This document shows, one piece after another, positions 9,005-32,360 of a stretch of DNA of 64,000 bases (position 1 is its first letter; the number at the start of each line of letters is the position of its first letter). Source of the DNA: Escherichia coli (GTDB lineage Bacteria > Pseudomonadota > Gammaproteobacteria > Enterobacterales > Enterobacteriaceae); the NCBI RefSeq assembly GCF_003334305.1, contig NZ_QOWS01000012.1, one strand, 5' to 3'. A program made the translations under genes and the position numbers. Under the pieces are notes generated by a model. That model searched no databases. It was not told where the DNA came from and saw only the letters and a program-made list of their open reading frames with translations.

Positions 9005-11518
9005 TTAATTTTGGCTAATACACGGTAAAATAACCGTTACGGTGGTTAAGTTGCTGCTATTGGGTGGTTGAATAAAACAGGATTTATCACCCCAGCGTAA
9101 AGTAAGTTTGCTGTCATCCTGAATGCCGTTGAGGTATACAAAGCCGCCATCAGCAACCAGTCCTAATTCTTTATGGCTGGTTTTATCTTTTACGCTAATC
9201 CCCAGTGGTGGGTGACTACCATCTGCCAGGCGAATAACCCCCATGATTTGATAGCCCTTGCGGGTATCAAGTTTGGCGTAGCCAATAGCACCTTCGGTTA
9301 AGGTGGTGGTGATAACCGAGTTTTCGATATCCACATTTTCTGGAAGATTTCGGGTATCAACGCTTAATGATGTTGTTATGTAACTGCTGACTGATGGAAT
9401 AACTCCGATGCCATACCGATTAGTTACCGCGCGTTTATTGTTCAACGGAATATCTTCTGCACCATCTGCGTCGATCATAAAACGCGAGTCAGCACTACCA
9501 CTATAGTCATGGAAAGCGGCTCCGTGACGAGTCGCCGTGAATGAACCATTCCAACTGGCATTCAGAGAATAATAACTGTCTCGCTGTGATGTCCCGGAGA
9601 GATAGAGACGACCGTTCTCGGTATTATGCTGATAACTGGCGCGTAGTGACGCTTTCATATCTTTGAATTCATCATTGTCGCCTGAAGCAGAAACGCTCCA
9701 GGAATTATTTCGATCGGAAGAGTCATACCACGAAGCAGTATGCGAAATCTTGTTATCCTGATTTCGTTGCATACCATAGCTCAATGTTCTACTGGTTCCC
9801 CAGGGAATCGAAATATTTAGGTACAGTTGATCCTGGTTGTCTTCTTCCCAGTTTATTCGGCTAAATGTTAGAGAAGTGGAGACGTTTTTTAATGGCCCGA
9901 TATCAAAATCGCGGCTAAGTGATAATGAATAATTCACATTACTGCTGGCGTCCCAGTAAGTATTACGAGCCAAACTTACGTATGTATTTAACCTTAATGA
10001 TTCAAGATACTGGTTAAACGTGACAATATAACTCTCTTTTTCATTCTGATAATTCGTGTAATGGTTAGTGTCATTGATATATTCATTCATTGTCACAAAG
10101 TTTTTATCAGAGAAACGGTAACCAGCGAAAGTGAGCTGGCTACCGGTAGATTCAAAACGTTTTGAATAGTTAGCGCGGTAGCTATAACCCGTTTCTTTAT
10201 CCTGATTATGCAACTGAGCATCAGATCGTGTGACATCAAAAGATAATGAACCCAATGAGTTAAGGTTAAAGCCAACGCCGGCAGCCAGAGATTGATAATC
10301 ACGGTTTGTTAAAACTGAACCACCATACAGGGATACATTGTTCAGCCAACCCCATGAGAATTCACCAGTCCAGAAGAAGGGTTGTTGTAAGGAATCACCA
10401 CCAACGCTGGTCGGTTTACCCATAGCAGTGGTGTAGCGAATCTGCCCTTTACGCGTCAGATAAGGAATACTATTAGATGCAACTTGCCATTGCGTGACTT
10501 GCCCGTCCTCTTCTTCAACCTTGACGTCCAGTTGCCCCTGTAATGTATTGAATAAATTAGTAATAGCAAATGGGCCAGGAGGAACATTTTCTTGATAAAT
10601 AATACGGTTGTTCTGTGAGACAGTGACCTTTGCATTCGTTTGTGCAACACCCGTGATTTGCGGTGCGTAACCACGTAGATCAGGCGGCAACATATTCTCA
10701 TCGCTTTTCAACGAAACGCCAGAAAAATGGAAAGAGTCGAAAATAGAGGATTCAGTATCGTATTGACCTATAGTTAGTTTTGCATTAATTGCTGGGATTG
10801 GGCGAAACAAATAAATACGCGGAAAATCCAGGTTGTTCGCCTGGCTTTTGCCATTGTTAAATGATTGATCGTACTGGTAATCAGTACGCAGGCGCCAGGC
10901 CCCAAGATTAACCCCAGCCTGCCCATAGGAACTTATATTTTGTGAATTATCGCCCTGATGTGGTGCATAATGAGAGGCATATAAATTGTAGTCAAGAAAT
11001 GCCCCAGCAATACCATGATCCCAAAGTTCAGGAGGCGTCCAGTTTGCATCTTTGTATTTTAACCATGCCTGAGGTGCAGATATGGATAATTGCATTTTCC
11101 CTTTATCGAGATAAGTTGTAATTTGTTTTTCTTTTTCGATAGGGTAACAACCATCGATCAGGTTTTGCTGAGCCACTTCAATAATCTCATCAGTAAAGCC
11201 TAATAATGTTAATTGCTCTGGAGTCAGACAAACTGCAGTTTGGTTATCAATTAATACCCATTGCAGGTCCAGATGGATTGGCGTCCTTTTATTATTAATA
11301 AGAGCGTTTAATGAGTATTTACCTACGGGTAATTGGCCATCAGTTTCAAATTGGGAAAGGTTAACGTTTTCACGATCTTCGGCTTCGATTAAATCTTTGT
11401 TGAATTCAACGGCATAAGCTGACGCACAACCAATGATGAGAACGGATAATGAACAATAAATATTTTTAATCAATTCGCTTATTGTGGTTAATTTTAATTT
11501 TTTATACATCTGTTCCAC
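9005..11518 (-). CDS. yqiG: Outer membrane fimbrial usher, uninterrupted
   Basis: 837 aa continuous ORF of the FimD/PapC usher family. It sits between the major subunit and chaperone genes. Confidence 0.9.
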   Translation of the reverse strand: MEQMYKKLKLTTISELIKNIYCSLSVLIIGCASAYAVEFNKDLIEAEDRENVNLSQFETDGQLPVGKYSLNALINNKRTPIHLDLQWVLIDNQTAVCLTPEQLTLLGFTDEIIEVAQQNLIDGCYPIEKEKQITTYLDKGKMQLSISAPQAWLKYKDANWTPPELWDHGIAGAFLDYNLYASHYAPHQGDNSQNISSYGQAGVNLGAWRLRTDYQYDQSFNNGKSQANNLDFPRIYLFRPIPAINAKLTIGQYDTESSIFDSFHFSGVSLKSDENMLPPDLRGYAPQITGVAQTNAKVTVSQNNRIIYQENVPPGPFAITNLFNTLQGQLDVKVEEEDGQVTQWQVASNSIPYLTRKGQIRYTTAMGKPTSVGGDSLQQPFFWTGEFSWGWLNNVSLYGGSVLTNRDYQSLAAGVGFNLNSLGSLSFDVTRSDAQLHNQDKETGYSYRANYSKRFESTGSQLTFAGYRFSDKNFVTMNEYINDTNHYTNYQNEKESYIVTFNQYLESLRLNTYVSLARNTYWDASSNVNYSLSLSRDFDIGPLKNVSTSLTFSRINWEEDNQDQLYLNISIPWGTSRTLSYGMQRNQDNKISHTASWYDSSDRNNSWSVSASGDNDEFKDMKASLRASYQHNTENGRLYLSGTSQRDSYYSLNASWNGSFTATRHGAAFHDYSGSADSRFMIDADGAEDIPLNNKRAVTNRYGIGVIPSVSSYITTSLSVDTRNLPENVDIENSVITTTLTEGAIGYAKLDTRKGYQIMGVIRLADGSHPPLGISVKDKTSHKELGLVADGGFVYLNGIQDDSKLTLRWGDKSCFIQPPNSSNLTTVTVILPCISQN

Positions 11519-11568
11519 TTATCATTAATCCGTTAATGATGTGGCCGGGCGAACCCGGCCTAATGTGA

Positions 11569-12120
11569 TTACTCGTAAGCAATCTTATAGTCAGCCTGAG
11601 CGTAAACGTTGCCCGGGGTAGCATCTTTGCTTGGGGATTCCATACGAGCTTTGAAGTTCAGTTCCTGATAGCTGTTAGTATTGTTGAATGTAATTACTAC
11701 CGGAGTACCTAAAGTCACTTCGCCGCTCTGGCTATCCAGAATACGTACGCCAACGCCTGTGGCACCACCGATTTCAGTTTCTTTGGTGTTTTTCAGCAGG
11801 TCAGTCTGACCCGTCATAGTATTCGCTGTGGTGAAAGTAACCTTCGCTTTTGAATAAGTGGTTCCACCCTGGCTCAACATGCAGTCTTGCAGGTGAATAG
11901 TGAAAGGCTCAGCCAAAGATTTCTGGTCGCTTTTCAGAACGGTATCTGCTACTTCACCCAGATTTACAGTTAAGTCTTCGTCACCTGGTTTAATTGAACA
12001 TGGAGCAGAGATAACTTCACCTTTAAATTTAACAATGCCGTGACCTTCGTCAGCAAATACGTTATTGGAAAGAATCATTGCTACGCCAGCAACAAGAAGT
12101 GACTTTTTAAAAGCAGACAT
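11569..12120 (-). CDS. ygiL: Fimbrial major subunit (type 1 pilin-like)
   Basis: 183 aa with a signal peptide (..NNVFA/DEG), a conserved pilin Cys pair and a C-terminal ...DYKIAYE strand. It is the first gene of the operon. Confidence 0.9.
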   Translation of the reverse strand: MSAFKKSLLVAGVAMILSNNVFADEGHGIVKFKGEVISAPCSIKPGDEDLTVNLGEVADTVLKSDQKSLAEPFTIHLQDCMLSQGGTTYSKAKVTFTTANTMTGQTDLLKNTKETEIGGATGVGVRILDSQSGEVTLGTPVVITFNNTNSYQELNFKARMESPSKDATPGNVYAQADYKIAYE

Positions 12121-12348
12121 AATATTCCTTTATATAAATATAAGTAGAAAATGAATGATTAGTAACTGTTATTTAAGGATTGCTAATCATTCAAATATTA
12201 TATTTTACTTTTCGGGTTTTATGAAATTAGTTTATCTAAATATGGATTAAGTAAAACTTAAAAAATACATAACAATTATATTTTCAATTGCACTCATTCA
12301 TTTTTGTGATGATATTCTGAATGGAATTAAGCGATAAGGTAATAGAAA

Positions 12349-12387
12349 GCACTGTAAATTAGAAGATTAATTCATAATTTACAGTGC
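12349..12387 (-). terminator. Probable Rho-independent terminator of ubiK/yqiC
   Basis: A perfect 12-bp inverted repeat, gcactgtaaatt / aatttacagtgc, with a 15-nt loop. It lies 16 nt after the ubiK stop and is followed on the minus strand by ctttct. Confidence 0.55.
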
Positions 12388-12402
12388 ATTAAAGACAAAT
12401 GT

Positions 12403-12693
12403 TTACAGCGTTGGGGGGAGAGTCTCTGGATCTGGCTGCTTTTTAATCTCAGTACTGCGATTTTCCAGTTCGCTCATTCTTTGTTCAAGCAGCGCCAGTT
12501 TCTCACGAGTCCGTAACAGGACTTGCGTTTGGACGTCGAACTCTTCACGGCTTACAAGGTCGAGGCGCGTCAGCTGAGCTTGTAGGGTTTGGCGGATTTT
12601 TTTCTCCACATCTTCCCCGAACTCCCTGATTCCTTTAGGCATTGATTCGTGAACCTGGCGAGCGATTTGCTCAATTTTTTTCGGGTCAATCAT
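12403..12693 (-). CDS. ubiK: Ubiquinone biosynthesis accessory factor UbiK (BMFP family, 96 aa)
   Basis: The translation from [32 protein letters not shown]... matches YqiC/UbiK. The longer 116-aa ORF start has no support. Confidence 0.85.
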
Positions 12694-12814
12694 TGTAGTT
12701 TCCCTGTACTGATAGGTGTTGAGTGCCATTGTAGTGCGATAAGGGTAAGTCATAAACCAGAATTATGTGAAGCTATGCGTTGCTGCCGCTAATCATTAGC
12801 GTTATAGTGAATCC

Positions 12815-12964
12815 GCTTATTCTCAGGGCGGGGCGAAATTCCCCACCGGCGGTAAATCAACTCAGTTGAAAGCCCGCGAGCGCTTTGGGTGCGAACTCAA
12901 AGGACAGCAGATCCGGTGTAATTCCGGGGCCGACGGTTAGAGTCCGGATGGGAGAGAGTAACGA
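12815..12964 (+). promoter_or_regulatory. FMN riboswitch (RFN element) in the ribB leader
   Basis: The sequence contains the conserved RFN core segments: tctcagggcggggcgaaattccccaccggcggt ... cagcagatccggtgtaattccggggccgacggttagagtccggatgggagaga. It lies about 100 nt upstream of the ribB ATG. Confidence 0.9.
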
Positions 12965-13066
12965 TTCTGTCGGGCATGGACCCGCTCACGTTATTTTGGC
13001 TATATGCCGCCACTCCTAAGACTGCCCTGATTCTGGTAACCATAATTTTAGTGAGGTTTTTTTACC

Positions 13067-13720
13067 ATGAATCAGACGCTACTTTCCTCTTTTGGTACGC
13101 CTTTCGAACGTGTTGAAAATGCACTGGCTGCGCTGCGTGAAGGACGCGGTGTAATGGTGCTTGATGATGAAGACCGTGAAAACGAAGGCGATATGATCTT
13201 CCCGGCAGAAACCATGACCGTTGAGCAGATGGCGCTGACCATTCGCCACGGTAGCGGTATTGTTTGCCTGTGCATCACTGAAGATCGCCGTAAACAACTT
13301 GATCTGCCAATGATGGTAGAAAATAACACCAGCGCCTATGGCACCGGTTTTACCGTGACCATTGAAGCGGCTGAAGGTGTGACTACCGGTGTTTCTGCCG
13401 CTGATCGAATTACGACCGTTCGCGCAGCGATTGCCGATGGCGCAAAACCTTCTGATCTGAATCGCCCGGGCCACGTTTTCCCACTTCGCGCGCAGGCAGG
13501 TGGTGTACTGACGCGTGGCGGTCATACTGAAGCGACTATTGATTTGATGACGCTGGCAGGCTTTAAACCGGCTGGTGTGCTGTGTGAGTTGACTAATGAC
13601 GATGGCACGATGGCGCGTGCACCAGAGTGCATTGAGTTTGCCAATAAACACAATATGGCGCTCGTGACTATTGAAGACCTGGTGGCATACCGTCAGGCAC
13701 ATGAGCGTAAAGCCAGCTGA
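13067..13720 (+). CDS. ribB: 3,4-dihydroxy-2-butanone 4-phosphate synthase
   Basis: 217 aa. It carries the DRENEGD and HTEA motifs typical of RibB and is preceded by an FMN riboswitch. Confidence 0.95.
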
Positions 13721-13751
13721 AAACCGCTGCTTAATTACTGCCTTAATCAAG

Positions 13752-13783
13752 AAACCGAAGTTGTAGCTGGCTTCGGTTTTTAT
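13752..13783 (+). terminator. Rho-independent terminator of ribB
   Basis: Stem aaaccgaag / cttcggttt followed by tttatttt. Confidence 0.75.
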
Positions 13784-13980
13784 TTTGCCCTGCTATGCAA
13801 GATGTTAATTCCGCTTCTCTTTCTATGAGAAAATTTCATTAATATCAGGCATTCTTTTTCATTATGATCAAAATCATATAATTGTTCCGTTATTATGCGA
13901 CCATATGAATATATCCGAAAAAGGATATGTGAAATTTATGCGCTAAATGTTTAGTATTGTTAAATATTAAGGGTAAAAGG

Positions 13981-14151
13981 ATGTTTATCGCCTGGTACTG
14001 GATTGTATTGATTGCTCTTGTTGTGGTGGGTTATTTCCTGCATTTGAAACGTTATTGTCGGGCGTTTCGCCAGGACAGAGACGCACTGCTTGAAGCGCGG
14101 AACAAATACTTAAACAGTACGAGAGAAGAGACAGCCGAAAAGGTAGAATAA
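13981..14151 (+). CDS. Small single-pass membrane protein (56 aa)
   Basis: The ATG at 13981 is preceded by aaaagg. There is one clear TM helix (FIAWYWIVLIALVVVGYFL) followed by a charged tail. I do not confidently recall a gene name for it. Confidence 0.5.
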   Translation: MFIAWYWIVLIALVVVGYFLHLKRYCRAFRQDRDALLEARNKYLNSTREETAEKVE

Positions 14152-24028: not shown

Positions 24029-24072
24029 TAATCTTTACCCGGCAAACATGTGTTTTGCCGGGTTGTCGCTGA

Positions 24073-24942
24073 TTATTTTATTGGGCACAGTTTGTTACGA
24101 TCTGGAAATAGTGTTGCCAGCGAACCAGCCAGAGTTTTCCAGTCCGTAGCCATTTTTTCTGCTTGTGCAGTTGTTATTACTGCACCTTGTTGTTTAATAA
24201 GCTCATCCTCCACTCTGGTATAGTGAATAATGGTAAAATCCGTAGAGGACCATTTATCCTTAGAGAACATCTTCGTCATCGCATGAATGTTTGCTTGCCC
24301 GTCATCGATAAAAACAATCGCGTCATATTTGTTCCCCATTTTATCCAGCATATAATCGAGAATTACGCCTTTATCTTGCCCGGAAGAAAAAAATACCCCC
24401 TGGCTGTACAGCCATGACCGTTTGAGTTTCCCTTTTTCAAAGGGTGGCAAAGTATCCTCTTTCTTCCTGAGTGCGGAAGACGAAAAATCAATGCCGTTTC
24501 GCTTTAATTCCCGCAATGTCGGAAAGAGAGTATCCGGTGCACGGGATGTCAGAGCAAAAGCGGTATGCTTTTGTTGCCACTGTTTTAACATTGTCGGTAA
24601 CTGTGGCTCGGTAAGCTGCATAGGGCTAAGTTCGTAAAGCATACTGATTGTATTTTCATACAGGCAGGGAACTTTTTGCGAGTCATCCGGCTTTAAGGGC
24701 AATTTATCGGTTTACCATTGATACCAGATATCACCGCCAATGCGTGTGCCACTCGTTAATAACGTATTATCAATGTCAAAAACCAATAATATCTTATCGG
24801 ATGGATAGAGAGTTTCCTTTTCGGTGATAATTTTACTGACCGCACTATATTCGCCAGTAACTATATTTTTTACCTGTGCGTAAGATAAAGCTGGCAGAGC
24901 AGAGAGTATCATCCAGAGAATGATTTTAAATTTATTATTCAT
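24073..24942 (-). pseudogene. Secreted HAD-like phosphatase (DxDxT motif), interrupted by an in-frame TAA
   Basis: The 76-aa ORF (24712-24942) has a signal peptide and the FDIDNTLL motif. It ends at TAA (24712-24714), and the same frame continues directly into the 209-aa ORF (..YQW*TDKLPLKPDD..). Confidence 0.7.
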
Positions 24943-24955
24943 TTTTTATTCCAGA

Positions 24956-25690
24956 TTAGAAAGTATAAGTCAGACCCCAGCGCCAGCGGATTTGGCGATT
25001 ACTTGATGTTTTATCCACACCTTTATAATCCGCAATACTCATATAGGGTATCCACGATCCCATTTTGTACCCTACTTTAAATGATGCGGTATAGTTTTTA
25101 TGGCCATCATTCCAGGTTAAATAACCATTATTGTAATAGACCAGGTTTAACTGATATTGGAAGTTGGTTTTTTGTGGTCGATAGTCGATCCACACATCGT
25201 AACGGCGGTTATTACGATCATCGTTGCCATAACCTTTGGATTTATCGGTAGCTTTATCCATGTCATAACGAAAACGACCCGAAACTTTCCATTCTTTGCT
25301 GAAATCATAACCCGCAGAAAGACCATATTCGTAAGTTGACCAATATTGCGTGGTATCAAGCCAGAACATGGGTTCTAACCAGAATTTTTTGTCATCCAGC
25401 GGCTTAAAGCGGTAAACAACAGATAATCCTGTTCCGTTATTGCCAAATTGTGAGGGGTCCCACTTATCTTTATCACCTTCATCGGTGTTATAGCGTAATT
25501 CTCCCATCAAACCGATACCATTACTAAAAAATGTACCAAATTCAACGCGGTCCGCGTGGGTGCGAGTATCATCAAGATACTCATGACGATAATCAATAAA
25601 TCCATGCGGCTGTTCTGCACAGACTAGTGTAGGTGACAGGCAGGATAACATTGTTATTCCTGCAAGTGATATTTTAAGATAAGAATTCAT
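24956..25690 (-). CDS. KdgM/NanC-family outer membrane oligosaccharide porin
   Basis: 244 aa with a signal peptide. It shows an alternating beta-strand pattern, the GFIDYRHEY start typical of the KdgM family, and a C-terminal ...WGLTYTF ending in aromatic Phe. Confidence 0.7.
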   Translation of the reverse strand: MNSYLKISLAGITMLSCLSPTLVCAEQPHGFIDYRHEYLDDTRTHADRVEFGTFFSNGIGLMGELRYNTDEGDKDKWDPSQFGNNGTGLSVVYRFKPLDDKKFWLEPMFWLDTTQYWSTYEYGLSAGYDFSKEWKVSGRFRYDMDKATDKSKGYGNDDRNNRRYDVWIDYRPQKTNFQYQLNLVYYNNGYLTWNDGHKNYTASFKVGYKMGSWIPYMSIADYKGVDKTSSNRQIRWRWGLTYTF

Positions 25691-25785
25691 AATATTCCCT
25701 TTCAGAATAAAATATATTTTTGGTGATCGAATACACCATCTGATGATTCCAGGTATTAGAATGTTTTTTTATCTATAGTTTGACT

Positions 25786-26910
25786 TTAAATTTTAAGTTT
25801 GTTTTCCTTATCAATGAATAGATAAAATTTCGTCTGTTGATGGGGCTGGAAATTATTATCAGATACAAATATTAACGATGTATGCCCATCAATCAGAGGA
25901 CCGAAGGTTACCCCTTCAATACAATCCGCAGAGGAAGTGTAATCAGCAAAATCAATTAATAATTTTTTACTGACGGGTTGTAACGTGGATTTATTGGACC
26001 AATCTTGCAGACTGTCAATATCCTTGATATCGCTGGCAGCAGTTAAATCGACCATATAAACTCTGACAGAGTAATCCCAGTCATTGAACCCAGCACTGAC
26101 GTTTCTGCCGGAACGTTCGATGACCAACAATTGGTGATCATTCAGCGCCAGGACCTCGGATACGCCATTATCATTAATACCGAACTTACTCACTTGCGGA
26201 ACAGGATCAGTAATATAGAGATATTCATGCAATTGCTTTGAAGGTCGACCGTCTGCATCTATAGAAAATTGCAGTAAGCGTGATGTACCTGAATTTATTG
26301 GACTTGCAATAGGCCCATCCTGTTTAAGGCTGCTTTCAACGGCGATAAAAAGTGATTTTCCATCTGGTGTAACTGTCAGGCCCTCCCAGGCGTTGCCGCT
26401 GCGAATACCATTGCTGCTCTCTTTGTCAGAACTAATATTAAATCGAGCAGGAAATAAAGACGTAAAATCTTTCTCCATTACGCCATCGAGAGTGCTCAGA
26501 CGCAGTGGAGCACCTAACTCCGAACTCCATAGTAATGACTTACCATTGTGTGTCAGGGCCAGACCTTCGGCATCCACCGTATTGGTCACGAAAGGCTGCT
26601 GTTTTGCATCAAGCAGTGGACGCTGGTTGAGAAAATTCACTTGCTCAATGCCCCTGGATGATACCTGTATTTTTAGTGTATAAAGACTGGCATCTCCTTC
26701 TTTATTATTGTTTCTGCTATCGTTAATAGCATAGAAAATATTTTTTTTTGCATCAAATGTGATGGCTGATAGCCCCGCGATTGTAACATTGTTCTGTTTT
26801 TCTCCCGTCCGGAAGTTGAACTCACCAGCATAATGAAGAAAACTGTTTGCCTGCGCTGTTGTGCATAACAGCGGTAATGCCAGAAAAATAGCGGCATGTC
26901 TTATTTTCAT
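25786..26910 (-). CDS. Secreted phytase-like / esterase-like beta-propeller protein
   Basis: 374 aa with a signal peptide (..TAQA/NS). It has repeated GLS/EGL.. blades and a D/N-rich sequence resembling the phytase-like esterase domain family. The assignment rests on recollection of that family only. Confidence 0.5.
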   Translation of the reverse strand: MKIRHAAIFLALPLLCTTAQANSFLHYAGEFNFRTGEKQNNVTIAGLSAITFDAKKNIFYAINDSRNNNKEGDASLYTLKIQVSSRGIEQVNFLNQRPLLDAKQQPFVTNTVDAEGLALTHNGKSLLWSSELGAPLRLSTLDGVMEKDFTSLFPARFNISSDKESSNGIRSGNAWEGLTVTPDGKSLFIAVESSLKQDGPIASPINSGTSRLLQFSIDADGRPSKQLHEYLYITDPVPQVSKFGINDNGVSEVLALNDHQLLVIERSGRNVSAGFNDWDYSVRVYMVDLTAASDIKDIDSLQDWSNKSTLQPVSKKLLIDFADYTSSADCIEGVTFGPLIDGHTSLIFVSDNNFQPHQQTKFYLFIDKENKLKI

Positions 26911-26939
26911 GATATTTACCTTTGTGTATGTATCTGATT

Positions 26940-27854
26940 TTAGTCGTGTTGTGAAAGAAAAAGATTAACTTCCGATGGTGTCGCCAGATGACCTCTGGCA
27001 CCTAATGCAGTAATATTTATTGCTGCAGTGGCAGAAGCAAATTTTAGTGCTTCAATTAAGGGCATGTTTTTTATTAAGCTATAAACAAATGCACCATTAA
27101 AAGTATCTCCAGCGCCAGTGGTATCAATAATGGGAATTGTATAGCTACCTATTTTTACTTGCTCATTGCCTTTGACTGCAATTACTCCCCTAACATCCAG
27201 CGTAACCACGACAGCCTCAAGTTGATACTCGTCTTGTATATCATGCAGAAGTGTAAAATCTGGCTCTGCTGCATAGCCACGAATAAAACCGTCATAATTA
27301 AATATCGCAATATCAGCAAGGTGTAAAATTCTGGCAAGGTGTTCAGGTGTTGCAATGATATGAGGCTCAATATCAACGACAACTTTTGTCATCTGGCTAC
27401 GGGAATATTCGGCCAGCATACGAAATTTCTCGATATCTGCTGGCATCGTATAATAATAACGGCTTTGCGCAATTGCCTGCAGGGCTTTTTCTTTATCCCA
27501 CTCATGATCACTACCAGGCGAGTAAACCAACGTTTTTTCACCTAATTCATCAATAAAGATAATCGCGGTATTGGCAATCAATTCCGGAATTACCTGAACG
27601 AAATCACAATTTACATGATATTTTTTAAATCCATCAAGAATGATCGAGGCTGAATGATCATTGCCCACACATGAAACAGATACCACATTGAGACCCAGTT
27701 GTCCCATCGCACAGGCACTGTTGGCGACTGTGCCGCCAGCTTGTTCACCCAGACGTGTCCCGACCACTTTACCGCCACGAGTGGGGAGTGACGGGATAGA
27801 TAAAAAAATATCTATATTTCCACTGCCTAAAGCGGCGACATCAAATTTCTTCAT
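26940..27854 (-). CDS. PfkB-family carbohydrate kinase
   Basis: 304 aa from MKKFDVAALGSGNIDIF.. preceded by the RBS gggaga. The C-terminus carries the DTTGAGDTFNGAF signature. The upstream extension to 27908 would overlap the SIS gene and is rejected. Confidence 0.85.
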   Translation of the reverse strand: MKKFDVAALGSGNIDIFLSIPSLPTRGGKVVGTRLGEQAGGTVANSACAMGQLGLNVVSVSCVGNDHSASIILDGFKKYHVNCDFVQVIPELIANTAIIFIDELGEKTLVYSPGSDHEWDKEKALQAIAQSRYYYTMPADIEKFRMLAEYSRSQMTKVVVDIEPHIIATPEHLARILHLADIAIFNYDGFIRGYAAEPDFTLLHDIQDEYQLEAVVVTLDVRGVIAVKGNEQVKIGSYTIPIIDTTGAGDTFNGAFVYSLIKNMPLIEALKFASATAAINITALGARGHLATPSEVNLFLSQHD

Positions 27855-27858
27855 AGTC

Positions 27859-28857
27859 TTATTTCTCCCTATGGCTAACGCGTTGCCCGCCTGCGTCGAC
27901 ATAATCACAACTTAAATGCCAGCACATTTCATATAACCACTGCATGACCAGAAATAAATTGTTGGACTCACTGGCATCAGGTATAAAACTGATTAATTCT
28001 GCTGTCGCTCCCTGTTCAACAATTGCTTTTTGGGTTGCAATGTAAAATGGGTACTCGCGGGATGTAGCTGGCAGTAAAAAATAATGCTGACCGACACCAG
28101 CCTGATGTAAGCGTAATGAATGATAAAATTCTTCCAGTGGAAAGGCTGTCGCACGAATCTGTGGGCCGCAAGAAAGTAAATTGCTCCCCGATATTGCTAG
28201 TCCCCAACTTAAGCCACTCCCCAGAAACGTTATCTCTTTTTGTTGGTAAAAATGGCGCTTCTTTTGCTGCCAGTGCTGATTAATCTGGCTAAATTTCCCT
28301 TCTAAATCCTCTTCAATTTGCAGTGGTGTTAAGCCTGGACATAAGTTTTGCGCTAAGCGCAGGAGGGTATAAAGTGTGACGCTACTACTTTGCGTTGGAA
28401 TACCCTGCTTATTCGCCCATGTATAGAGCATGTTTTCTGTTATTGCGCAAAATGGTGTTCCAGGGCAATTCGTCACACCCAGCACTTGCGCGTTTGAGCA
28501 TACTGCGTGGCTAAGGGCGTCAACGGTCAGTGATGGTCTGCCACTTGCGCTGAGAATAATGATCAACGTTTCTTTCTGATAACGGGTTAAATCAGTCTGA
28601 AGAAAATCCCACGTTTGCAATGCGGAACAAAACAGATGTGTGTATTTCCCCAGCCAGGCGGCGGCACATAGTGCCACCGTCCAGGAGTCGCCCGATCCCA
28701 CTATACAGACGCGTTCAACAGCACGTTTATCGAGCTGAACAGATGAAAAACATTCACCCCAGATAGCTGCCAAATGGCGTAGCGCTGCCGCCGTTGCATT
28801 TATTTCCTCACGAGTTTGCGCTAATGGCATAACAGGAGCACGGGCTGGCATGTTCAT
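27859..28857 (-). CDS. Double SIS-domain sugar-phosphate isomerase/deglycase-like protein
   Basis: 332 aa with two SIS-like segments (CIVGSGDSWTVA and TFLGSGLSWGLA). Its ATG overlaps the ARH gene stop by 1 nt (TAATG). Confidence 0.75.
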   Translation of the reverse strand: MNMPARAPVMPLAQTREEINATAAALRHLAAIWGECFSSVQLDKRAVERVCIVGSGDSWTVALCAAAWLGKYTHLFCSALQTWDFLQTDLTRYQKETLIIILSASGRPSLTVDALSHAVCSNAQVLGVTNCPGTPFCAITENMLYTWANKQGIPTQSSSVTLYTLLRLAQNLCPGLTPLQIEEDLEGKFSQINQHWQQKKRHFYQQKEITFLGSGLSWGLAISGSNLLSCGPQIRATAFPLEEFYHSLRLHQAGVGQHYFLLPATSREYPFYIATQKAIVEQGATAELISFIPDASESNNLFLVMQWLYEMCWHLSCDYVDAGGQRVSHREK

Positions 28858-29933
28858 TATTTCTCCTGTGCCTGTACTGCAAGCAATGTCAGACCCGATG
28901 CGATCGCTTCAACATCGAAATCTTTATTATTTACGGCGCGGAAAAAGGCATATTTATCTTCAGGGAGCGCATCAAAACCGCGCCATGCCCCTGCAATTGC
29001 GCCTGCCATCGTAGCGATGCTATCGGTGTCATTGCCAATATTGGCGCAGGCATGGATGGTTTCCCAGGGTTCTCCTTTGCAGTACAGCAATAGACCGATT
29101 GCCGCAGGAATGGATTCATGGGCGGCAACAGAGTTACCAACCAAACCTTCCATTTCTCGCAGACAAGACTCCAGATCATTGGCACGTCTGGCGATGTCCG
29201 CTGCAAGTTGGATGCGCATGGCGATAGATGGCCCTGCTACACATCGTGCATATTGTTTGGCCAGGCGTTCGCCGTAATTCGCTCCCCAGATTGCGGCATC
29301 CAGTAATGATGTGAGCGAGGCTTCTGGTAACATAGCCTGCGATGTCGCTGCAGCGATGGCGCAAGCGCTGGCAATCGCAATATTGGTGTCATGTGAAGGT
29401 AGGCAAGTTATTAACGCCAGGCGACACGCTTTTTCTTTCTTGCCAGGCCAGATCAATCCTGCCGGGGCTACACGCATTCCTGCGCCATTCGTGGTGCCGA
29501 CATTGGGGGCCTGACGAGAAGATGTTCCAATACGCCCAATGGTGTTTGTTGGTCTACCTTCTTTTAGTGCCTTGACGATTTGTTCTGTTGTGGGGCCTTT
29601 ATAATTTGCGTAGGGCTGCATATCGGCCCAACGCAGAAGACAAGCTAACCAGTCATTATTGGTGAAGTTATCAAATCCAGCCTCAATTAACCCTTCTGAA
29701 AACACATACATTTGGCTGGAATCGTCGGTGATAAGTCCTGCAACACCATTTAATGAGCCAGCAAAGGTATCGGCAGGAGGAGAAACAAAGGCATTTAAAA
29801 AACCTCCCCATTGAGTTTTTATTTCATCAATGCTGTAGAGTTCAGTCGCTGCGCCTAATGCATCGCCCATACCTGCGCAGGCTAAAGAACCTAATATTTT
29901 GTTATAAATTACGGCTTGTTCTATTTTGTTCAC
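28857..29933 (-). CDS. ADP-ribosylglycohydrolase (ARH/DraG) family hydrolase
   Basis: 358 aa. It has the N-terminal GMGDALGAATE motif, an internal DDSSQ, and the C-terminal GNDTDSIATMAGAIAGAW metal-site motif typical of the family. Confidence 0.8.
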   Translation of the reverse strand: MNKIEQAVIYNKILGSLACAGMGDALGAATELYSIDEIKTQWGGFLNAFVSPPADTFAGSLNGVAGLITDDSSQMYVFSEGLIEAGFDNFTNNDWLACLLRWADMQPYANYKGPTTEQIVKALKEGRPTNTIGRIGTSSRQAPNVGTTNGAGMRVAPAGLIWPGKKEKACRLALITCLPSHDTNIAIASACAIAAATSQAMLPEASLTSLLDAAIWGANYGERLAKQYARCVAGPSIAMRIQLAADIARRANDLESCLREMEGLVGNSVAAHESIPAAIGLLLYCKGEPWETIHACANIGNDTDSIATMAGAIAGAWRGFDALPEDKYAFFRAVNNKDFDVEAIASGLTLLAVQAQEK

Positions 29934-29946
29934 AATATTCTCTCTG

Positions 29947-30699
29947 TTACACGCTAAAACTGTCTTTTGTAATTCGTGCTTTGTAGGAGTACCGACTTGC
30001 GGGATAAACCATCTCTACATACTCCATTGGTTTACGTTCCACGGATAACGTGACGCGGGTACAACTTAATACGACGTCATCGGCAGTCAGTTCCAGTAAT
30101 TGACGCTCAAGGGGCGAGGGAAGCCGGGCAGAGATAATCTCCGTTGCTTCTAAAGGTTTAATAGCGAGTTTTTCTTCCAGTAAAATATAGAGCGAACCCG
30201 TCGCCAGCAGCTCTTCCAGAGTTATTTCTTGTCCGTCATTTAACGCAAGCCATGATGTCTGAATACCCAGCGGCGTACTTCCCATATAGCGAATGCGTTT
30301 TATACAGAAAACGGTATGGACATGGATATCAAGTTCGAGATTTTTTCTGATAATATCACTGAGAGGAATATAACCTATTTCAAGAATATTCTGTGCCGGT
30401 ACGCCACCACGAGCCTTAATGTCATCAGTAAAACTATGTAATAAATGATTTTCCCGACTGCGAGCCGGTAATGTAAATGTTCCTTGCCCGTGGACACTAT
30501 GCAGGTATCCGCGTTGTTTCAAACTTTCTATTGCTTTCCGAATTGTTGTTCTGCTGCTTAAAAAATGTTCAGCCAGTTCTCTTTCTGTTGGTATAGCTTT
30601 GCCTTCTTTCCATTCACCGTTATCAATTTTTTTCTTTATTTCATCAAAAATTTCACGATGCTTTAGCTGACCTTTACTGGCTTTATAAATTCTTATCAT
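29947..30699 (-). CDS. GntR-family transcriptional regulator, HutC subfamily (wHTH plus UTRA effector domain)
   Basis: 250 aa. The N-terminus carries the PTERELAEHF..SRTTIRKAIESLKQRGYL..HGQGTF HTH, and the C-terminal ~150 aa look UTRA-like. It lies 13 nt upstream of the ARH gene. Confidence 0.85.
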   Translation of the reverse strand: MIRIYKASKGQLKHREIFDEIKKKIDNGEWKEGKAIPTERELAEHFLSSRTTIRKAIESLKQRGYLHSVHGQGTFTLPARSRENHLLHSFTDDIKARGGVPAQNILEIGYIPLSDIIRKNLELDIHVHTVFCIKRIRYMGSTPLGIQTSWLALNDGQEITLEELLATGSLYILLEEKLAIKPLEATEIISARLPSPLERQLLELTADDVVLSCTRVTLSVERKPMEYVEMVYPASRYSYKARITKDSFSV

Positions 30700-30718
30700 G
30701 ACAAAGCCTCATTTCAAG

Positions 30719-30730
30719 TGGTTGATACCA
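30719..30730. promoter_or_regulatory. Candidate HutC-type operator, TGGTTGATACCA
   Basis: Inverted repeat TGGT-N4-ACCA, located 20 nt upstream of the regulator ATG (30699) in the divergent intergenic region. Confidence 0.4.
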
Positions 30731-30881
30731 ACTTTACATTCTTTTATTTTTATTGCGCAGTATGCTTATTTGTTATCTGTGACATAAAACAGGAAAAACC
30801 ACATTTATTAATAAATATCATGCGGTTAAGTGAAATTGGTTTTTATGTGATGCTGCTCAATATTAACTCAGTGGTTTGTTG

Positions 30882-30893
30882 TGGTATCTACCA
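30882..30893. promoter_or_regulatory. Candidate HutC-type operator, TGGTATCTACCA
   Basis: Perfect inverted repeat TGGTA-TC-TACCA, about 90 nt upstream of the transporter ATG. It resembles the DasR/NagR-type TGGT.TA.ACCA operator cores of HutC regulators. Confidence 0.45.
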
Positions 30894-30985
30894 ATGCATT
30901 TATTCTCAATCGTAAAGTTATGTGCTGAATGAGTTCCGATACATTTGTTTTTAATATAATTTCATGTGATTAATGAGTGCTGTGT

Positions 30986-32317
30986 ATGAAACTGACAATA
31001 AATGAAAAGATAGGTTTTGGTGCCGGTGATATGGCCATTGCGATAGTAATGATGTCTTTAGCCATGATCATCACTTATTTTTACACGGATGTATTTGGTC
31101 TGAAACCCGTCGACTTAGGTATTCTGTTATTTTCTGTACGTATTCTTGATGCTGTGATTGATCCAGTTGTGGGAACAATGACAGACATAACGAATACACG
31201 TTGGGGAAAATATCGGCCATGGTTGCTTTTTATGTCAATACCGTTTGGGATAAGCATTTGGTTGATGTTCACCACACCTGATACCGATTATTCAGTTAAG
31301 CTTTTATGGGCCTGGGCTACCTATGTGTTACTTACCTTGACCTATACGTTAATCGCTATTCCTTATGTTTCATTAATCAGCGTTATCACGGATGATCCAC
31401 AAGAGAGATTGAGCGCCAATGGTTATCGTTTTGTTATGACAAAAATTGCCATGTTCGCCGTAACAATTATTGTTCCTTTATCTGCAATGTATCTTGGGAA
31501 GAATAACGTACAACTGGGTTATCAAATAGCAATGGGGACAATGGGTATTCTGGCAACGTGTTTATGCCTGTATTGTTTTTTTAGCGTGAGAGAGCGCATC
31601 TACCATCCAAAACCCAGTCTCGGTATGGCCGCGCAGTTTCGGTTACTGATCAAAAATGATCAATGGCTCATTTTGGGCGCTGTAATTGCGATCATTATGT
31701 TTGGCGGGATTATTCGTAACTCTGTCGCTGCATATTATGCAAAATATTACCTGAGTGGTGGGGATGCTTTAATTTCACCGTTTTTAACTTCAGGCGTGAT
31801 CGCCTCAGTTCTGGCTATGATCGCTTGCACCTGGCTTACTCGTCTCTATGACAAAATAAAAATATTTCGTTATACCCAATTACTGGCGTTCGTGGTGGGT
31901 GGTGCGATGTATTTCGTGCAACCAAATTCTATAGTGCTAGCTTTTACATTTTATATTGTGGTGACTTTCCTGACGGATATCCAGCTTCCCATTTATTGGG
32001 CATCCATTGCTGAGTCCGTGGATTACGGTGAAATGAAAACGGGGCAACGTGTTTCTGGCCTGGCATTTGGCGGGATTCTCTTTTTCCAAAAGTTCGGTAT
32101 GGGGCTGGCAGGGGGCTTTATCGGAATCGCTTTAGCCTATCTGGATTATCAACCAGGCGTAGAACAAACACCACAGGCGCTGTGGGGGATCTGCCTGTTA
32201 ATGACGATCATTCCCGCGATACTTAACCTGCTTACCGGACTCATCATGAGATTTTATCTGATTAATAATGAATATTACGAACAGATAAAAGCACGGTTAC
32301 AAACGGCGGAAGAGTGA
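30986..32317 (+). CDS. GPH-family (glycoside-pentoside-hexuronide:cation) symporter
   Basis: 443 aa from MKLTINEKIGFGAGDMA with about 12 TM segments. It carries the RWGKYRPWLL loop signature of MelB/YicJ-type carriers. The GTG at 30977 is an alternative start. Confidence 0.85.
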   Translation: MKLTINEKIGFGAGDMAIAIVMMSLAMIITYFYTDVFGLKPVDLGILLFSVRILDAVIDPVVGTMTDITNTRWGKYRPWLLFMSIPFGISIWLMFTTPDTDYSVKLLWAWATYVLLTLTYTLIAIPYVSLISVITDDPQERLSANGYRFVMTKIAMFAVTIIVPLSAMYLGKNNVQLGYQIAMGTMGILATCLCLYCFFSVRERIYHPKPSLGMAAQFRLLIKNDQWLILGAVIAIIMFGGIIRNSVAAYYAKYYLSGGDALISPFLTSGVIASVLAMIACTWLTRLYDKIKIFRYTQLLAFVVGGAMYFVQPNSIVLAFTFYIVVTFLTDIQLPIYWASIAESVDYGEMKTGQRVSGLAFGGILFFQKFGMGLAGGFIGIALAYLDYQPGVEQTPQALWGICLLMTIIPAILNLLTGLIMRFYLINNEYYEQIKARLQTAEE

Positions 32318-32325
32318 AAATAAAT

Positions 32326-32352
32326 GGCCGGCAAGCAGCACCGGCCTCTTTT
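32326..32352. terminator. Bidirectional terminator between the symporter gene and ygiN
   Basis: Stem ggccgg / ccggcc with a 9-nt loop, then tctttt. Confidence 0.65.
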
Positions 32353-32360
32353 CAGAAATA

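Follow-up and report, generated by a model that had tools for sequence, protein, structure and literature searches.

Among the described systems closest to the locus treated here are two loci of Escherichia coli: yegTUV with the regulator gene yegW (ggaR), which encode a transporter, an ARH-family enzyme, a PfkB kinase and a GntR/HutC repressor, and frl (frlABCDR), in which, as in Salmonella fra, a double-SIS enzyme accompanies a kinase of the PfkB family and a regulator of the GntR/UTRA type. A periplasmic trimming enzyme is additionally encoded in fra. The function of yegTUV is still to be established (PMC10819704). Our subject is a locus on the E. coli contig NZ_QOWS01000012.1 (assembly GCF_003334305.1), of which a stretch of 64,000 nucleotides, hereafter the window, was analyzed; its four-gene core at positions 26940-30699 encodes a GntR/UTRA regulator, an ARH-family enzyme, a SIS protein and a PfkB kinase. 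An earlier reading of the sequence alone, hereafter the original prediction, had described this core as merging the yegTUVW and frl designs, which holds for the protein families and the operon logic and not for orthology, as the identities are low throughout. The ARH enzyme shares 31% sequence identity with YegU, the kinase 22% with YegV, the regulator 25% with YegW/GgaR and 27% with FrlR, and the SIS protein 19% with FrlB (over 166 residues), and the alignment of the kinase with FrlD comprises just 72 C-terminal residues. The yeg proteins are paralogues of those encoded here, with a transporter of the NHS family as opposed to the GPH family, and the yeg system lacks a SIS protein, periplasmic enzymes and a porin. 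In the frl and fra systems, on the other hand, there is no ARH enzyme and the substrates are Amadori compounds, whereas the SIS protein investigated here is nearer to GlmS and the kinase is not FrlD-like.

Two further systems are informative as comparisons. PsuT/PsuK/PsuG (yeiMCN) offers a mechanistic analogy only, in that a nucleoside transporter and a PfkB kinase are followed by a glycosidase acting on the 5'-phosphate: PsuK, whose base pocket is opened, is a nucleoside 5'-kinase and PsuG yields ribose 5-phosphate, but PsuG belongs to a different fold family than the ARH enzymes and cuts a C-C bond. The ribose utilization systems (RUS) of the Bacteroidetes, as a concept the nearest that has been described, are similar in scavenging ribose around ribokinases and variable ‘cleavage’ enzymes, with an ADP-ribosyl glycohydrolase in some variants, but differ in their SusC/D-type uptake and their regulator; nucleosides, cofactors, (poly)ADP-ribose and capsules have been proposed as their ribose sources (Glowacki et al., bioRxiv 10.1101/574913). 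Literature searches on the gene combination, the RefSeq protein accessions, the function of PF13449 and ARH enzymes in catabolism returned no characterization of the locus and no pathway of this composition, in line with what had originally been stated, and the only trace found is an unannotated table line listing an 8,372-bp accessory region in a comparison of uropathogenic E. coli (PMC6854850). Our analysis shows a conserved catabolic system that is of a familiar general kind, a ribose-conjugate scavenging operon, with an unfamiliar set of enzymes, comprising by their predicted roles an ARH enzyme fed by a PfkB kinase that is not a ribokinase, an optional GlmS-like SIS protein and dedicated periplasmic phosphoesterases. 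The reading that we favor, if tentatively, is that of a horizontally acquired, self-regulated system for scavenging a nucleotide-derived ribose conjugate. To our knowledge, no ARH-family enzyme has an established small-molecule catabolic role, and the same applies to the E. coli paralogue YegU.

The four core genes are closely packed on the minus strand with the regulator gene first, as had been noted. The regulator gene (29947-30699, with its TAA stop codon at 29949-29947) is separated by 13 nt (cagagagaatatt) from the ARH gene (28857-29933), which has a GTG start and whose TAA stop codon shares its last A with the ATG start of the SIS gene (27859-28857; TAATG, a 1-nt overlap), and 4 nt (gact) lie between the SIS stop codon and the ATG of the kinase gene (26940-27854). 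All of these coordinates and junctions come straight from the sequence, and the starts of all four genes agree with the RefSeq annotation of an identical genome. Shine-Dalgarno-like motifs (GAGAG, AGGAG and GGGAG) precede the three downstream starts. For the kinase, a mechanical list of open reading frames (ORFs) offers an alternative GTG start at 27908; the ATG at 27854 was preferred because of the GGGAG motif, the RefSeq start and the match to the N-termini of RbsK and the orthologues. All four family assignments of the original prediction were recovered with Pfam models (GntR and UTRA, ADP_ribosyl_GH, SIS, and PfkB with E 6e-43). Its interval, ending at the kinase, proved too short, as a gene for a phytase-like protein begins 29 nt past the kinase stop codon. 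No terminator-like site was predicted in this gap, but the terminator scan performed no better than on shuffled sequence; as the promoter and terminator scans both gave no more matches than shuffled sequence, neither was used as evidence. The functional unit does not end at the kinase but consists of eight genes, adding to the core a GPH-family symporter, the phytase-like beta-propeller, a KdgM-family porin and a DUF2608 HAD-like phosphatase.

The ARH protein covers the full length of Pfam PF03747 (E 1e-49, profile positions 1-287 of 287). Its AlphaFold2 model (predicted local distance difference test score 95) was found by Foldseek to be most similar to MJ1187 (TM 0.75/0.88), ARH3 and DraG, each with a probability of 1.00, and comparisons to solved ARH structures gave TM values of 0.69-0.75 at no more than 26% sequence identity. 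The enzyme thus has the fold and the metal-binding motifs in common with ARH3, MJ1187 and DraG, and differs from them in sequence (≤26% identity) and in its catabolic genomic context. The conserved metal-binding Asp and Thr residues, which the original prediction had singled out as decisive, are all present: D24, E31, T69-D70-D71 and D302-T303-D304 do not vary among 60 orthologues, and S305 is nearly invariant. These residues correspond to D34, E41, T76-D77-D78 and D314-x-D316-T317 of ARH3, where the equivalence of D302 and D314 is based on alignment and the other equivalences on motif spacing; the roles of the ARH3 residues as binuclear-metal ligands and catalytic Glu have been described (PMC8319183). 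The protein is a cytoplasmic ARH-fold enzyme with an intact binuclear-metal site, and it is predicted to cleave a ribosyl bond.

The kinase belongs to the PfkB superfamily by its fold and by three conserved features: Asp16, which is the ligand of the diol, a GG switch, and the catalytic base in GAGD. Ribokinase is its closest characterized relative (E 5e-28; 29% identity to E. coli RbsK over the full length), but the scores against the ribokinase models of NCBIfam were far too low, with 142.5 bits for TIGR02152 (cutoff 299.65, i.e. under half) and 129.8 for PRK11142 (cutoff 341). In an alignment of E. coli RbsK and 76 kinases from the loci (77 sequences; the residue table was later extended), the kinases partnering an ARH enzyme, here called type A, keep Asp16, Gly41-Gly42, Asn46 and GAGD255. 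At the positions of ribokinase Lys43 and Glu143, the window kinase has Thr and Pro, respectively; the same Pro at 143 is found in the type-A kinases of every proteobacterial and Chloroflexota locus, together with Thr at 43 (Pro in Chloroflexota). YegV also lacks both ribokinase residues (Cys and Ala). According to a structural study of pseudouridine kinase, ribokinases strictly conserve Lys43 and Glu143, which close off the pocket at C1 of ribose and occupy the space that a nucleobase would take (PMC7797080). With a score under the cutoff and both residues replaced, the kinase is on sequence criteria not an RbsK equivalog. The loss of these residues suggests that it is probably a 5-kinase for a riboside (a C1-substituted ribofuranoside), acting ahead of the ARH enzyme as PsuK acts ahead of PsuG, so that the originally proposed order, ARH cleavage followed by phosphorylation, is the less likely one.

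Two groups of loci bear on this order. In 13 Burkholderiales operons, a second PfkB kinase with the full ribokinase signature is encoded beside the type-A kinase, together with a nucleoside hydrolase, and as the two kinases occur together the type-A enzyme appears not to be redundant with ribokinase; adjacent pairs of unlike PfkB genes followed by the nucleoside hydrolase gene are found in, for example, L065 (11044-12888), L084 (11052-12979) and L075 (11034-12992). In such operons the nucleoside hydrolase and the true ribokinase would dispose of the released nucleoside. The minimal loci of Rhizobium encode just a GntR regulator, a nucleoside ABC transporter, the ARH enzyme and the type-A kinase, a layout matching both PsuT/PsuK/PsuG and YegT/YegU/YegV. 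A kinase acting first fits these loci since, by analogy, phosphorylation followed by ARH cleavage would yield ribose 5-phosphate directly.

The SIS protein comprises two SIS domains and can be aligned over its full length with the isomerase domains of GFAT. When a profile of 12 orthologues was compared to the PDB, the GlmS/GFAT isomerase domains (E 9e-21) scored better than the NagB-II deaminase (E 4e-17) and far better than the FrlB-like deglycase 3eua (E 2e-12). The motif E242-E243..H246..R249 is invariant in the 12 orthologues, with E243 and H246 aligning with the E-L-K-H of GlmS (Glu488 equivalent), and several additional basic residues are invariant as well. Based on these similarities, the protein is probably an active phosphosugar isomerase or a de-substituting isomerase. 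It is present in loci from Enterobacterales, Vibrio, Nitrospirillum and many Chloroflexota, and missing from those of Burkholderiales and Rhizobium, and is therefore not the fixed component that it had been taken for. In the Chloroflexota loci L091 (3713-17751) and L093 (7068-14370), orthologues of the SIS protein and the type-A kinase are encoded side by side with no ARH gene within 9 kb. These two nucleoside loci additionally encode several IU-nucleoside hydrolases, a nucleoside:H+ symporter, an adenine deaminase, a PRAI-family isomerase and an isochorismatase-family protein.

The substrate class is indicated by the gene neighborhoods of the ARH orthologues. An alignment search with the ARH enzyme in one-genome-per-species data gave 79 loci, and three more neighborhoods were viewed with Pfam labels. 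The hosts of the 79 loci are found among the Enterobacterales, Vibrio, Burkholderiales, Rhizobium, Nitrospirillum/Azospirillum, Caldilineaceae and Oscillospiraceae, i.e. in Proteobacteria, Chloroflexota and Firmicutes. A PfkB kinase is encoded in at least 70 of these loci and a nucleoside-type gene (Bmp ABC transporter, IU-nucleoside hydrolase, Tsx, 5'-nucleotidase or deaminase) in at least 68, while a secreted phosphoesterase (mostly phytase-like, PhoD-like in Nitrospirillum) and an outer-membrane channel are found in at least 39 and 38, respectively, and an adenosine or adenine deaminase in 13. The gene of the ARH orthologue nearly always adjoins that of the PfkB kinase. Recurring partners are Bmp/PnrA-type ABC transporters, UshA-like 5'-nucleotidases, and TonB-dependent receptors or KdgM/Tsx channels; of the loci most closely related to the E. 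coli island, that of Enterobacter includes Tsx, and those of Klebsiella, Kosakonia and Providencia an adenosine deaminase. Rather than the Amadori-type substrate considered earlier, the neighborhoods thus indicate nucleoside- or nucleotide-derived compounds. A separate arrangement is seen in a gut Oscillospiraceae locus (L083, 3380-11032), which encodes three ARH paralogues with an ABC transporter, an adenine deaminase nearby, and a PfkB kinase between the second and third ARH genes.

The remaining genes of the island encode transport and periplasmic proteins. The symporter gene (30986-32317, plus strand, RefSeq start; the mechanical ORF opens at GTG 30977) is divergent from the core, and its product is a GPH-family glycoside:cation symporter (Pfam MFS_2 E 2e-97; 346 bits for NCBIfam TIGR00792 gph, cutoff 231) predicted to be the inner-membrane importer. 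Downstream of the kinase on the minus strand, the phytase-like beta-propeller (25786-26910; PF13449) carries a Sec signal peptide and is predicted to be a periplasmic phosphoesterase. The KdgM-family outer-membrane porin (24956-25690, minus strand; Pfam KdgM E 3e-30) belongs to a family of channels for anionic solutes; every Enterobacterales locus encodes such a porin, as does one Vibrio locus out of two. The last gene, for the DUF2608 HAD-like phosphatase (24073-24912, minus strand), is a pseudogene in this strain, interrupted by an in-frame stop codon after ...GGDIWYQW and labelled ‘internal stop’ in RefSeq; other E. coli lineages, strain 537-20 for example, have an intact copy, which encodes 289 amino acids and starts 13 nt past the porin gene. 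Besides a signal peptide, the product contains FDIDNT, the nucleophile motif of HAD enzymes, and it has Pfam matches to DUF2608 and, weakly, to HAD. No Enterobacterales locus encodes both this protein and the UshA-like 5'-nucleotidase, the latter being found in Providencia, Kosakonia and Trabulsiella, where DUF2608 is missing, and this mutual exclusion suggests that the DUF2608 protein is a periplasmic nucleotidase or phosphatase.

The regulator has the domain composition of the GntR/HutC subfamily, with an N-terminal winged helix-turn-helix domain (Pfam GntR E 1e-17) and a C-terminal UTRA domain (E 6e-23), and reached no equivalog cutoff in NCBIfam. Two copies of the palindrome TTGGT-N4-ACCAA lie in the divergent control region of 277 bp, and the 64-kb window contains no other match with up to one mismatch. 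One copy (TTGGTAGATACCAC, 30881-30894), with the palindrome TGGTA-N2-TACCA, lies approximately 92 nt upstream of the symporter start, and the other (TTGGTATCAACCAC, 30718-30731) lies 19-32 nt upstream of the regulator start codon. Pairs of TGGT-N4-ACCA were found in the equivalent intergenic regions of all nine Enterobacterales loci checked, and sites of this type precede the channel and regulator genes in the two Vibrio loci, with about 0.3 such sites expected per 21 kb. The pair is a plausible candidate for a HutC-type operator, and would place both the operon, then autoregulated, and the symporter gene under the regulator.

The flow that we infer from these components, from its enzymatic steps and their order to the operator and the substrate, would begin at the outer membrane, where the KdgM porin would let an anionic nucleotide-like compound pass. 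In the periplasm, the phytase-like propeller, aided by the DUF2608 phosphatase where intact, would remove phosphates, and the GPH symporter would import the resulting neutral riboside, which would be both glycoside and nucleoside-like. The PfkB kinase would then phosphorylate the 5-OH of the ribofuranoside in the cytoplasm, and the two-metal site of the ARH enzyme would hydrolyze the ribosyl bond to give ribose 5-phosphate and an aglycone, for which the related loci hint at adenosine. In what is the least certain step, the SIS protein might isomerize a pentose phosphate or strip it of a substituent. The GntR/UTRA protein would repress both divergent promoters via TTGGT-N4-ACCAA until a pathway intermediate binds. 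Import of a ribosyl-type conjugate, glycosidic cleavage and phosphorylation, which had been predicted in general terms, are thereby retained, and only the likely order changes, with the kinase preceding the ARH enzyme.

Several points weigh against this scheme. The ARH enzymes known to us have ADP-ribosyl substrates with an alpha-linkage and a diphosphate, and activity on a 5-phosphoriboside is an extrapolation from these. GPH transporters are recognized for glycosides and not for nucleosides, and a fold search with the phytase-like protein gave no functional match. None of the eight genes of the E. coli island is nucleoside-specific, and the nucleoside link is consequently drawn from the orthologous loci. 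As the SIS protein and a type-A kinase also occur together in Chloroflexota loci lacking the ARH enzyme, a single linear pathway need not connect the three cytoplasmic enzymes, and the SIS protein is an optional partner that we place in no definite step. Finally, the DUF2608 pseudogene raises the possibility that the system may be decaying in this strain.

The order of the steps is the point on which the first alternative differs. If the ARH enzyme acted first, the riboside would be split into free ribose and an aglycone, the PfkB kinase would be an extra ribokinase, and the SIS protein would turn ribose 5-phosphate into ribulose 5-phosphate. The relationship of the kinase to ribokinase and the frequency of redundant copies of central enzymes in catabolic islands agree with such a route, but the replacement of Lys43 and Glu143 throughout the proteobacterial and Chloroflexota loci (judged by the criterion of PMC7797080), the canonical ribokinase alongside the type-A kinase in the Burkholderiales and the NCBIfam score at under half the cutoff make it unlikely, if worth keeping in mind. 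We regard as distinctly unlikely that the kinase and the SIS protein instead constitute the core, serving an unusual pentose from modified nucleosides such as a 2'-O-substituted ribose, from which the SIS protein would remove the C2 substituent by an enolization of the GlmS/FrlB/MurQ type, with the ARH enzyme as an add-on for O-ribosylated variants. The side-by-side orthologues in L091 and L093, the retained catalytic Glu of GlmS and the extra invariant basic residues are in favor of this idea, which is otherwise entirely speculative; the Burkholderiales and Rhizobium loci, with kinase and ARH enzyme and no SIS protein, argue against it, and we know of no documented case of such chemistry for a SIS enzyme on pentoses.

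The two other alternatives place the locus outside riboside catabolism. The combination of a double-SIS protein, a PfkB kinase and a GntR/UTRA regulator resembles frlBDR, and hhalign gave 97% probability for the SIS profile against FrlB, from which one could propose deglycation of an Amadori compound (fructosamine or ribulosamine) as in frl and fra, with the kinase acting on the ketoamine and the SIS protein as the deglycase. This is highly unlikely: the reading was rejected on the sequence comparisons of the SIS protein, the kinase and the regulator with FrlB, FrlD and FrlR, the SIS protein being nearer to GlmS and the kinase alignment confined to 72 residues, and the locus has neither an amino-acid transporter nor an amidase and lies in nucleoside-type neighborhoods. 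Alternatively, the ARH enzyme could be non-catabolic and reverse the ADP-ribosylation of proteins or nucleic acids, either as a regulator like DraG or Tri1 or as an immunity protein against ADP-ribosyltransferase toxins. All characterized ARH enzymes that we know of do act on ADP-ribosyl adducts, and TcC/RHS toxins with ADP-ribosyltransferase domains adjoin the locus in five Enterobacterales. We nevertheless find this proposal extremely improbable, as the ARH gene is translationally coupled to those for a sugar kinase and a phosphosugar enzyme and accompanied by a GntR/UTRA repressor of the sugar type and dedicated transporters, a PADLOC scan gave no match to a defense system, the NCBIfam scores for DraG and Tri1 were far under the cutoffs, and the toxin neighbors, which E. 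coli lacks, differ between loci in where they lie and how they are oriented.

The insecticidal-toxin genes themselves (TcC/RHS) adjoin the ARH locus in Leclercia, Trabulsiella, Kosakonia and Enterobacter (L009, 5838-8330; L012, 15823-17670; L013, 15829-17130; L057, 15831-17132; L014, 13214-14257), and a C-terminal NAD:arginine ADP-ribosyltransferase domain was found in the Trabulsiella and Kosakonia copies. Their positions and orientations vary. A functional link was considered and rejected, and they are probably co-resident island cargo, curious as it is to find ADP-ribosyltransferase and ARH genes side by side.

For the favored reading of a ribose-conjugate scavenging system, several features together point to a glycoside that is at the same time an adenine nucleoside: importers that are of glycoside, oligosaccharide and nucleoside type in different lineages, phosphoesterases that are secreted, a porin of the anion type or a TonB receptor, adenine-related deaminases, and the similarity of the ARH fold to ARH3. 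Possible, albeit doubtful, substrates are disaccharide nucleosides of the O-ribosyl-adenosine type and their phosphorylated parents, which could be fragments of poly(ADP-ribose) or products of TIR enzymes (2'/3'-cyclic ADP-ribose and pRib-AMP, decaying to ribofuranosyladenosine). Periplasmic phosphoesterases would then yield ribosyl-adenosine, the kinase would phosphorylate it, and the ARH3-like enzyme would cut the ribose-ribose bond. Many of the host bacteria are linked to plants, sponges or guts, which would suit such substrates. Ribosyl-adenosine is released from poly(ADP-ribose) by a phosphodiesterase and a phosphatase in a standard assay (PMC8319183), and infected Arabidopsis leaves contain the beta-linked 2'/3'-O-ribofuranosyladenosine as a major metabolite (PMC6290457), a compound that also serves as a marker of TIR enzyme activity (bioRxiv 2025.03.15.643477). 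The stereochemistry is a caveat, as the TIR-derived compound is beta-linked and known ARH enzymes cut alpha-linkages. If true, the locus would provide the first demonstrated case of a bacterial pathway using ADP-ribose polymer, or the remnants of immune signals, as a nutrient. More generally, the locus could reveal how bacteria recycle host debris derived from ADP-ribose or modified nucleosides, and solving it would assign a function to four little-understood protein groups, namely an ARH clade, the type-A PfkB kinases, a clade of GlmS-like SIS proteins and the secreted phosphoesterases of PF13449 and DUF2608. As a compact, self-regulated island variably present among E. coli strains and with orthologues in at least three phyla, it is a tractable case.

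The island spans 8.3 kb (about 24030-32360) between parE and ygiN on the E. coli chromosome, with a GC content of 0.40-0.48 compared to 0.52-0.55 in the flanks. Among the complete genomes of E. coli, 409 of the 5426 contain it, in every case on the chromosome, and no mobility genes are present in it; its horizontal acquisition is part of the same tentative reading as above. An Rfam scan of the island gave no riboswitch that could name the ligand. Two E. coli genomes deviate from the common arrangement: in NZ_CM129884.1 (hit H20) just 15% of the island is left, beside an IS1A element, and in NZ_CM142796.1 (L088) the right-hand neighbor of the island is a gene for a TonB-dependent siderophore receptor and not ygiN. 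An apparent second E. coli copy of the ARH gene in CP178302.1 (L082, 6000-15000) was rejected because this assembly is rich in errors, probably indels, with almost no ORFs of at least 150 amino acids across 9 kb around the ARH match. Elsewhere in the window, a second stretch of low GC content (0.40-0.43) at 6000-14000 contains an ORF of 837 amino acids at 9005-11518 on the minus strand.

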